From Escherichia coli (GTDB taxonomy: Bacteria > Pseudomonadota > Gammaproteobacteria > Enterobacterales > Enterobacteriaceae), in assembly GCF_003334305.1 (NCBI RefSeq), contig NZ_QOWS01000003.1: a stretch of 64,000 nt of DNA, one strand, 5' to 3'. The notes beneath the pieces were generated by a model, which did not search any database, had not been told where the DNA came from, and worked only from the letters and a program-made list of their open reading frames with translations. The position numbers were made by a program, and so were the translations under genes. This document shows positions 59,686 to 60,062 of this stretch, piece after piece; positions within the stretch are counted from its first letter, which is position 1; each line of letters starts with the position of its first letter.

Positions 59686-59772
59686 TGGTGCGAGGGGGGG
59701 GACTTGAACCCCCACGTCCGTAAGGACACTAACACCTGAAGCTAGCGCGTCTACCAATTCCGCCACCTTCGC
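59686..59772 (-). tRNA. leuV: tRNA-Leu (anticodon CAG)
   Basis: Reverse complement reads GCGAAGGTGGCGGAATTGGTAGACGCGCTAGCTTCAGGTGTTAGTGTCCTTACGGACGTGGGGGTTCAAGTCCCCCCCCTCGCACCA (87 nt, long variable arm, encoded CCA). Only one copy is present in the window. Confidence 0.9.
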
Positions 59773-59896
59773 ATACCATCAATTCTTAAAAAGAATTGCT
59801 ACCACGGAGGCGCATTCTAGTGGTTTTCAGCTTTTCGTCAATAGTTAATTATCGCCGGAGGTGTAATTGCTGGAAAAATGTCCATCAGGAAACTAG

Positions 59897-60062
59897 CGTG
59901 CAGGTTTTGTAGGTCGGATAAGGCGTTCACGCCGCATCCGACACGGTATTTGGGTGCAGATGCCAGATGCGACGCGGGCGCGTCTTATCTGGCCTACGAA
60001 GGGCTAACGTGCAGGTTTTGTAGGTCGGATAAGGCGTTTACGCCGCATCCGACACAGTATTC
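59897..60062. repeat. BIME: two near-identical REP units flanking a third REP of different type
   Basis: gtgcaggttttgtaggtcggataaggcgtt(c/t)acgccgcatccgacac at about 59899..59945 and 60010..60056, with gccagatgcgacgcgggcgcgtcttatctggcctac between them. Confidence 0.6.

Follow-up and report, generated by a model that had tools for sequence, protein, structure and literature searches.

How did a locus that holds three tandem leucine tRNA genes in Escherichia coli K-12 come to hold only one? The question was raised by a 64,000-nucleotide stretch of E. coli DNA (here called the window) in which ARAGORN found exactly one tRNA gene, an 87-nt tRNA-Leu(CAG) gene at positions 59686..59772 on the minus strand, between yjjZ and rsmC. 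An initial annotation, made from the letters alone, had reported this single gene, had set it against a leuQ-leuP-leuV tandem at the same place in K-12, and had weighed contraction by recombination against the collapse of identical repeats during assembly. ARAGORN, Rfam, the list of open reading frames, and annotation transfer agree on the single gene, and K-12 MG1655 does carry three genes at the same place. The gene scored 48.5 bits against the Rfam tRNA model (RF00005; gathering score 29), its anticodon (cag) was placed by ARAGORN at position 35, and it forms a cloverleaf with a long variable arm. In sequence comparison, it was identical to K-12 leuQ and leuV at 87 of 87 bases; C48T, the substitution that marks the middle K-12 gene, leuP, is absent from it.

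The surroundings of the gene are those expected of the locus. Upstream of it and on the same strand lies rsmC (60073..61104, minus strand), encoding the 16S rRNA m2G1207 methyltransferase, which was recognized as a 343-aa open reading frame, by tblastn, and by annotation transfer; the window RsmC protein is 100% identical by tblastn to that of the STW0522-31 locus. On the other side, yjjZ (DUF1435; 59411..59647, plus strand), placed from the open reading frame list with coordinates transferred from STW0522-31 (99.9% identical), is convergent with the tRNA gene, and fhuF and holD lie further out from yjjZ and rsmC. A promoter scan located the sigma-70 promoter of the leu tRNA operon at 59814..59841 on the minus strand, running from 59841 to 59814 and lying 42 nt 5' of the tRNA gene: TTGACG, a 16-nt spacer, and TAGAAT, with 10 of 12 matches, followed by the GC-rich stretch GCGCCTCC. 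The columns of this promoter are invariant in a five-genome alignment, and the promoter of the one-copy locus is intact. The leader between promoter and tRNA 5' end (59773..59813, minus strand; assigned by sequence comparison) is of the type found before leuQ, the promoter-proximal gene, and is identical to K-12 across the 45 nt compared. The few strain substitutions in the otherwise invariant region upstream of the tRNA cluster at 59851-59857, just upstream of the -35 hexamer, where the plus strand reads CGCCGGAGG in the window, CGACAGAGG in K-12, and CGCCTGATG in O157.

The 3' side of the gene was equally recognizable. Sequence comparison identified a trailer of the leuV type (CCA-AUUAUC...; 59648..59685, minus strand) that is identical in all E. 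coli compared. A terminator scan found no intrinsic (hairpin) terminator 3' of the window tRNA. We rejected the missing hairpin as a sign of a defect, as it agrees with the published model: the K-12 leuV trailer, CCAAUUAUC, is unstructured, and termination there is presumed to be Rho-dependent (PMC2190699).

Placed beside its K-12 counterpart, the window locus differs in gene number and in little else. In the yjjZ-rsmC interval of MG1655, leuV (b4368), leuP (b4369), and leuQ (b4370) lie in tandem, separated by spacers of 34 and 28 nt; in the order of transcription, the array consists of leader, leuQ, 28-nt spacer, leuP, 34-nt spacer, leuV, and trailer. The spacer sequences, AAAACCACGTTGATATTGCTCGCACTGG and AACGAGGCGATATCAAAAAAAGTAAGATGACTGT, would mark the tandem array, and leader, spacers, and trailer are the same in the three-gene arrays of K-12, O111 11128, and strain 10153. 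Window and K-12 share the position between yjjZ and rsmC, the direction (that of rsmC), the promoter, the leader, and the trailer; they differ in that the window has one gene instead of three and lacks leuP and both spacers, with no remnant of either spacer detected in the alignment with K-12. The window gene is bordered by precisely what borders the K-12 array as a whole: the leuQ leader at one end and the leuV trailer at the other. With both ends of the operon retained, promoter included, what is missing relative to K-12 amounts to two whole repeat units (115 + 121 = 236 bp). With one gene and no spacers in place of three tandem genes separated by 28 and 34 nt, the locus is best classified, from its sequence, as a contracted allele of the leuQPV operon and not as the canonical operon.

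Two discrepancies in the published record of the array were encountered during this comparison. The table of 3' trailing sequences in PMC2190699 gives CCAAACGAG after leuQ and CCAAAAACC after leuP, while in RefSeq AAAACC follows the promoter-proximal leuQ and AACGAG follows the middle gene, leuP; the two trailer labels appear to have been swapped in one source or the other. In CFSAN004176 (L003 1887-2085), two tRNA-Leu genes are annotated with lengths of 85 and 86 nt and have shortened G runs; these are probably homopolymer assembly errors rather than real variants.

A single copy could also be an artefact, in which the source genome truly has three genes whose identical 87-nt repeats were collapsed by the assembler. 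The repeats do offer 87 identical or near-identical bases, loops that a de Bruijn assembly with k < 87 could in principle bypass; moreover, the window is identical to no complete RefSeq genome (the best match reaches 99.6% over 12 kb). However, the three-gene array is only 323 bp long and has unique spacers, so that ordinary reads should span each repeat, and the junctions in the window are clean, with neither a spacer remnant nor ambiguous bases. The main argument against collapse comes from the closest relatives of the window, every one of which is one-copy. The best matches among complete RefSeq genomes (99.4-99.6% over 12 kb) were PapRG-06-3 and PapM-36-2 (baboon, Gambia), STW0522-31 (Tokyo), IZSBS22, KD0845 (dog), C311 (cow), and SMBL (goat); judged by length or annotation, all of these nearest relatives have one tRNA gene. 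Five of them match the window without a gap and therefore have the same array of REP palindromes upstream as well, and in the 2 kb to either side of the locus SMBL differs from the window at one site per 1000. The one-copy state is thus common by descent to the window and several independently assembled genomes. It is also present in 425 complete genomes from many groups, including the O157:H7 Sakai reference (NC_002695.2), where a single tRNA-Leu(CAG) gene between yjjZ and rsmC is annotated as 'leuQ' (ECs_R0127). Assembly collapse in the source genome of the window is unlikely, and we would give it very little weight.

The count of 425 was obtained from 5,426 complete RefSeq E. coli genomes (7.8%) with a 207-nt query (60 nt of trailer, the tRNA, and 60 nt of leader) at a coverage of at least 80%; where several copies are present, no single alignment extends beyond 71% of this query. 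It replaced a first query of 901 nt, which had returned 504 genomes, mixing one-copy genomes with odd two-copy assemblies. Each of two queries for the inter-tRNA junctions was covered in 4,999 of the 5,426 genomes, bringing the sum to 5,424 and leaving two genomes unassigned. At 80-90% identity, the two junction searches yielded 14 and 22 records, probably two-copy genomes in which the other spacer is the one retained; two-copy genomes would then number approximately 36, under 1%, a figure derived from the identity bands and not from a direct count. Among evenly spaced rows of the 207-nt search, most one-copy genomes were O157:H7-type, with 99.0% identity to the query. Copy number at the locus, which the initial annotation had wished to see compared across E. 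coli, is therefore one in 425 of 5,426 genomes and three in the K-12 reference. Since the Sakai reference has a single annotated gene, the allele has long been present in public reference data. A search of the literature on leuQ/leuP/leuV and O157 found no paper discussing this polymorphism. The one-copy allele is a real, already catalogued, and fairly common natural variant. In this respect the first description had overestimated how unusual the locus is: a single tRNA gene and a three-REP array are each common, catalogued alleles.

Which state came first was addressed with an outgroup scan of one genome per species for pairs of Leu(CAG) genes separated by 10-40 nt. The scan returned 83 loci, of which 71 have three copies (ARAGORN, with tblastn of the window RsmC), a proportion that applies to tandem arrays, the only arrangement the scan detects, and says nothing about the number of one-copy species. 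Nearly all of the three-copy arrays lie 130-300 nt from an rsmC homologue (72-98% identity by tblastn), and the species that carry them include E. albertii, another Escherichia species, Salmonella enterica subsp. arizonae, Citrobacter, Klebsiella, Raoultella, Enterobacter, Kosakonia, Pantoea, Erwinia, and Izhakiella. Because the triple array stands beside rsmC in outgroups from both Enterobacteriaceae and Erwiniaceae, these sequences indicate that it is far older than E. coli, with three copies ancestral and the one-copy state derived. For the reverse order, in which one copy would be ancestral and the array an expansion in K-12-like strains, we found no supporting point. Against it stand the triple of canonical, variant, and canonical genes next to rsmC across both families and the near identity of the two spacers between E. 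coli and E. albertii; furthermore, duplication of a single gene could not re-create both spacers. We give an ancestral single copy practically no credence.

The outgroup arrays offered two further observations. Two tandem Leu(CAG) genes were found beside rsmC in K. pneumoniae ATCC 13883 (L075) and at L036, L046, L051, and L059; with two-gene arrays in other enterobacterial species, contraction is not confined to E. coli. The C48T change, which lies in the variable arm of the middle gene, leuP (in K-12, L100 8201-8287), and produces a U-G pair there, was found by ARAGORN coordinates in 39 of the 71 three-copy species; where leuP carries it, across many genera, the outer genes of the array are usually canonical. 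Additional changes in the D-stem of leuP vary by lineage (C26T in O111 11128, G25A in strain 10153, C24T in E. albertii). Such a pattern would suit a conserved isodecoder, or else a gene copy on which constraint has been relaxed.

With the ancestral state so read, we are highly confident that the window locus is a naturally contracted leuQPV allele, inherited within its lineage and arisen more than once in E. coli, together with an independent length variant of the adjacent BIME-2 array. The comparisons show the structure of the locus, its ancestral polarity, its frequency in the population, and its polyphyly. The likely course of events is as follows: from an ancestral array of leader, leuQ, 28 nt, leuP, 34 nt, leuV, and trailer, 236 bp would have been lost when the two outer genes, identical over their 87 nt, underwent unequal homologous recombination or replication slippage. 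The two repeat units could have been deleted in one step or by way of a two-copy intermediate, and what remained would be one canonical gene with the original promoter, leader, and trailer. Where the crossover took place cannot be read from the sequence, the repeats that recombined being identical. As the original promoter, leader, and trailer are kept, the single gene would still be expected to be transcribed, processed at its 5' end by RNase P, and trimmed at its 3' end as in K-12, but from a monocistronic RNA; in K-12, processing of the leuQPV operon is RNase P-dependent and RNase E-independent (PMC2190699). The recombination, like the normal expression and processing of the single gene, is what we infer from the sequence.

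Two-copy intermediates of either possible kind are present in other strains. MJ-T (L092 7687-7888) keeps only the 28-nt spacer, and Z1323CEC0018 (L094 7688-7895) keeps only the 34-nt spacer; in each strain both genes are canonical. Together with the exact outer flanks and the three-copy ancestry, these intermediates support contraction by recombination, as the initial annotation had suggested.

The recurrence of contraction was examined in a neighbour-joining tree of 14 sequences, built from 11.5 kb or 2 kb of flanking sequence per side with the array excluded. Five one-copy groups were recovered (the window with PapRG, PapM, and SMBL; TUM9803; HS30-1; ST648 with 2020S05-013-17; and O157 Sakai), interleaved with two-copy (MJ-T, Z1323CEC0018) and three-copy genomes (O111 11128, 10153, K-12), in what is a small sample, chosen among the top matches of a one-copy query, from a species that recombines. 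Once the spacers are lost, a single gene cannot give rise to the three-copy array again, so the scattered one-copy genomes reflect either repeated contraction or recombinational spread of the allele, and some apparently independent origins could be transfers of one allele. Transfer may also be considered for the window itself, whose lineage might have acquired the one-copy allele, through homologous recombination, from an E. coli lineage already carrying it. The scatter of one-copy genomes in the local tree, in a species that recombines frequently, would suit such an import, as would the four lengths of REP spacer (300, 267, 197, and 189 nt) found with one-copy alleles, which fit a shuffling of flanks. 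Within 2 kb on each side, however, the window clusters tightly with SMBL, PapRG-06-3, and PapM-36-2, and not with O157 or ST648. We consider import very unlikely; it would in any case change only the place of the first deletion, not the identity of the locus as a contracted allele.

A second variable structure separates the rsmC stop codon from the leu tRNA promoter: a BIME-2-type array of the form Y-Z2-Y (59893..60064, without assigned strand), defined by alignment with the K-12 and O157 forms and by a population count. Its units are a first REP of type Y (59909..59944, minus strand; hairpin of -19.3 kcal/mol, z = -4.1), a REP of type Z2 in the orientation opposite to the Y units (59962..59997, plus strand; -21.1 kcal/mol, z = -3.7), and a second Y (60020..60055, minus strand; -19.9 kcal/mol, z = -5.1). 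The initial description of two nearly identical REPs flanking a third was correct: a 61-nt direct repeat (59893-59953 and 60004-60064; 93% identical, period 111) contains both Y units and brackets the third palindrome. Neither the tRNA nor the REP structures are a chance pattern. Alternation of Y and Z2 units, a feature of BIME-2, is evident from the hairpins, the naRNA4 model, and the orientations read from the sequence; another such feature, a tandem copy number that varies between strains, is evident in alignment, where O157 has one REP, K-12 two, and the window three. O157 and CFSAN004176 have one Y unit and a spacer of 189 nt to rsmC; the spacer is 267 nt in K-12 (Z2-Y) and 300 nt in the window (Y-Z2-Y). 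A segment comprising the leader-side flank, Y, linker, and Z2 was present in 1,554 of 5,426 genomes (29%) at a coverage of at least 80%. The Y-Z2 form also occurs alongside three tRNA genes in strain 10153 and is thus independent of tRNA copy number. The three-REP array of the window is an ordinary BIME-2 length variant in the rsmC 3' region.

The first Y+Z2 pair (59912-59994) matched the Rfam naRNA4 model (RF02564) at 70.3 bits (gathering score 59.5; E = 2e-10). We rejected this match as a specific sRNA gene, the model being a generic Y+Z2 REP pair: it describes one Y+Z2 unit of REP325 (PMC4550694), which lies between yjdM and yjdN, and the window array lies between rsmC and the leu tRNA. Elsewhere in the window (25277-25319, minus strand), Rfam gave a match to the sRNA ES036 (CssrF) at 39.9 bits (gathering score 37.6).

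What the loss of two genes means for the cell depends on the other copies. tRNA-Leu(CAG) reads the most used codon. In K-12-like genomes there are four places that match the tRNA, three at leuQPV and one at leuT; HS30-1 has two (207-nt query), as does SMBL (junction query carrying tRNA halves), and non-O157 one-copy strains thus appear to get by with two Leu(CAG) genes. In O157:H7 genomes the 207-nt query finds three matching places. In RM8376 the extra copy is a tandem duplication of leuT inside argX-hisR-leuT-proM (NZ_CP064383.1 4462941-4463253; L101 2228-2540), and between the two leuT copies lies a chimeric pseudo-tRNA in which the 5' part of proM is joined to the 3' end of hisR, a structure that indicates a proM x hisR crossover as the source of the duplication. 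The chimeric junction was found in 288 of 5,426 complete genomes at an identity of at least 99%; this identity band was used because hisR and proM align with each other at 87.8%, which makes a count at 80% coverage non-discriminating. With a single leuQPV gene and the leuT duplication, O157:H7 has three Leu(CAG) genes, and the duplication may partly restore gene dosage, although compensation is speculation. A stronger version would hold that the repeated reduction from three genes to one is not neutral, the dosage of the CUG-reading tRNA and the loss of leuP both being selectable, with the leuT duplication in O157:H7 (288 genomes) compensatory and other lineages, including that of the window, living with two genes and not four; we regard this proposal as doubtful. 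One-copy strains have also lost the conserved leuP isodecoder, apparently without harm. E. coli tolerates a halved gene dosage of tRNA-Leu(CAG) and the loss of the conserved leuP variant, a tolerance that could serve studies of the robustness of tRNA pools.

Beyond such uses, the one-copy finding is real but ordinary and has little importance beyond bookkeeping. The leuQPV array is polymorphic in E. coli, with one copy in about 8% of complete genomes and two in less than 1%, which matters for annotation: a single copy at leuQPV is not by itself a sign of misassembly.

One of the closest known systems is O157:H7 Sakai, which shares with the window the one-gene allele and the same leader and trailer; it differs in having a single Y REP upstream, a spacer to rsmC of 189 nt as compared to 300 nt, and two SNPs in the trailer flank. 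O157:H7 genomes also carry the leuT duplication elsewhere on the chromosome, whereas non-O157 one-copy genomes such as TUM9803 lack it, and TUM9803 has no proM/hisR junction. The REP array resembles BIME-2 elements, REP325 among them, in its alternation of Y and Z2 palindromes with short linkers (PMC3333891, PMC4550694) and resembles BIME-2 in general in that strains differ in copy number at one and the same locus (PMC3333891); binding and cleavage by DNA gyrase are properties given for BIME-2 in the literature (reference list of PMC3333891). REP325, in contrast, has six Y+Z2 repeats between yjdM and yjdN, compared with 1.5 units between rsmC and the leu tRNA in the window, and it is the source of naRNA4, which acts with HU in nucleoid condensation (PMC4550694). 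Finally, the serCGA/serTGA system of Pseudomonas fluorescens SBW25 (PMC7661048, PMC10954465) is similar in that tRNA dosage changes through recombination between repeats. The SBW25 duplications extend from kb to Mb and were selected in the laboratory; the change at the window locus is a contraction of 236 bp, fixed in natural lineages.
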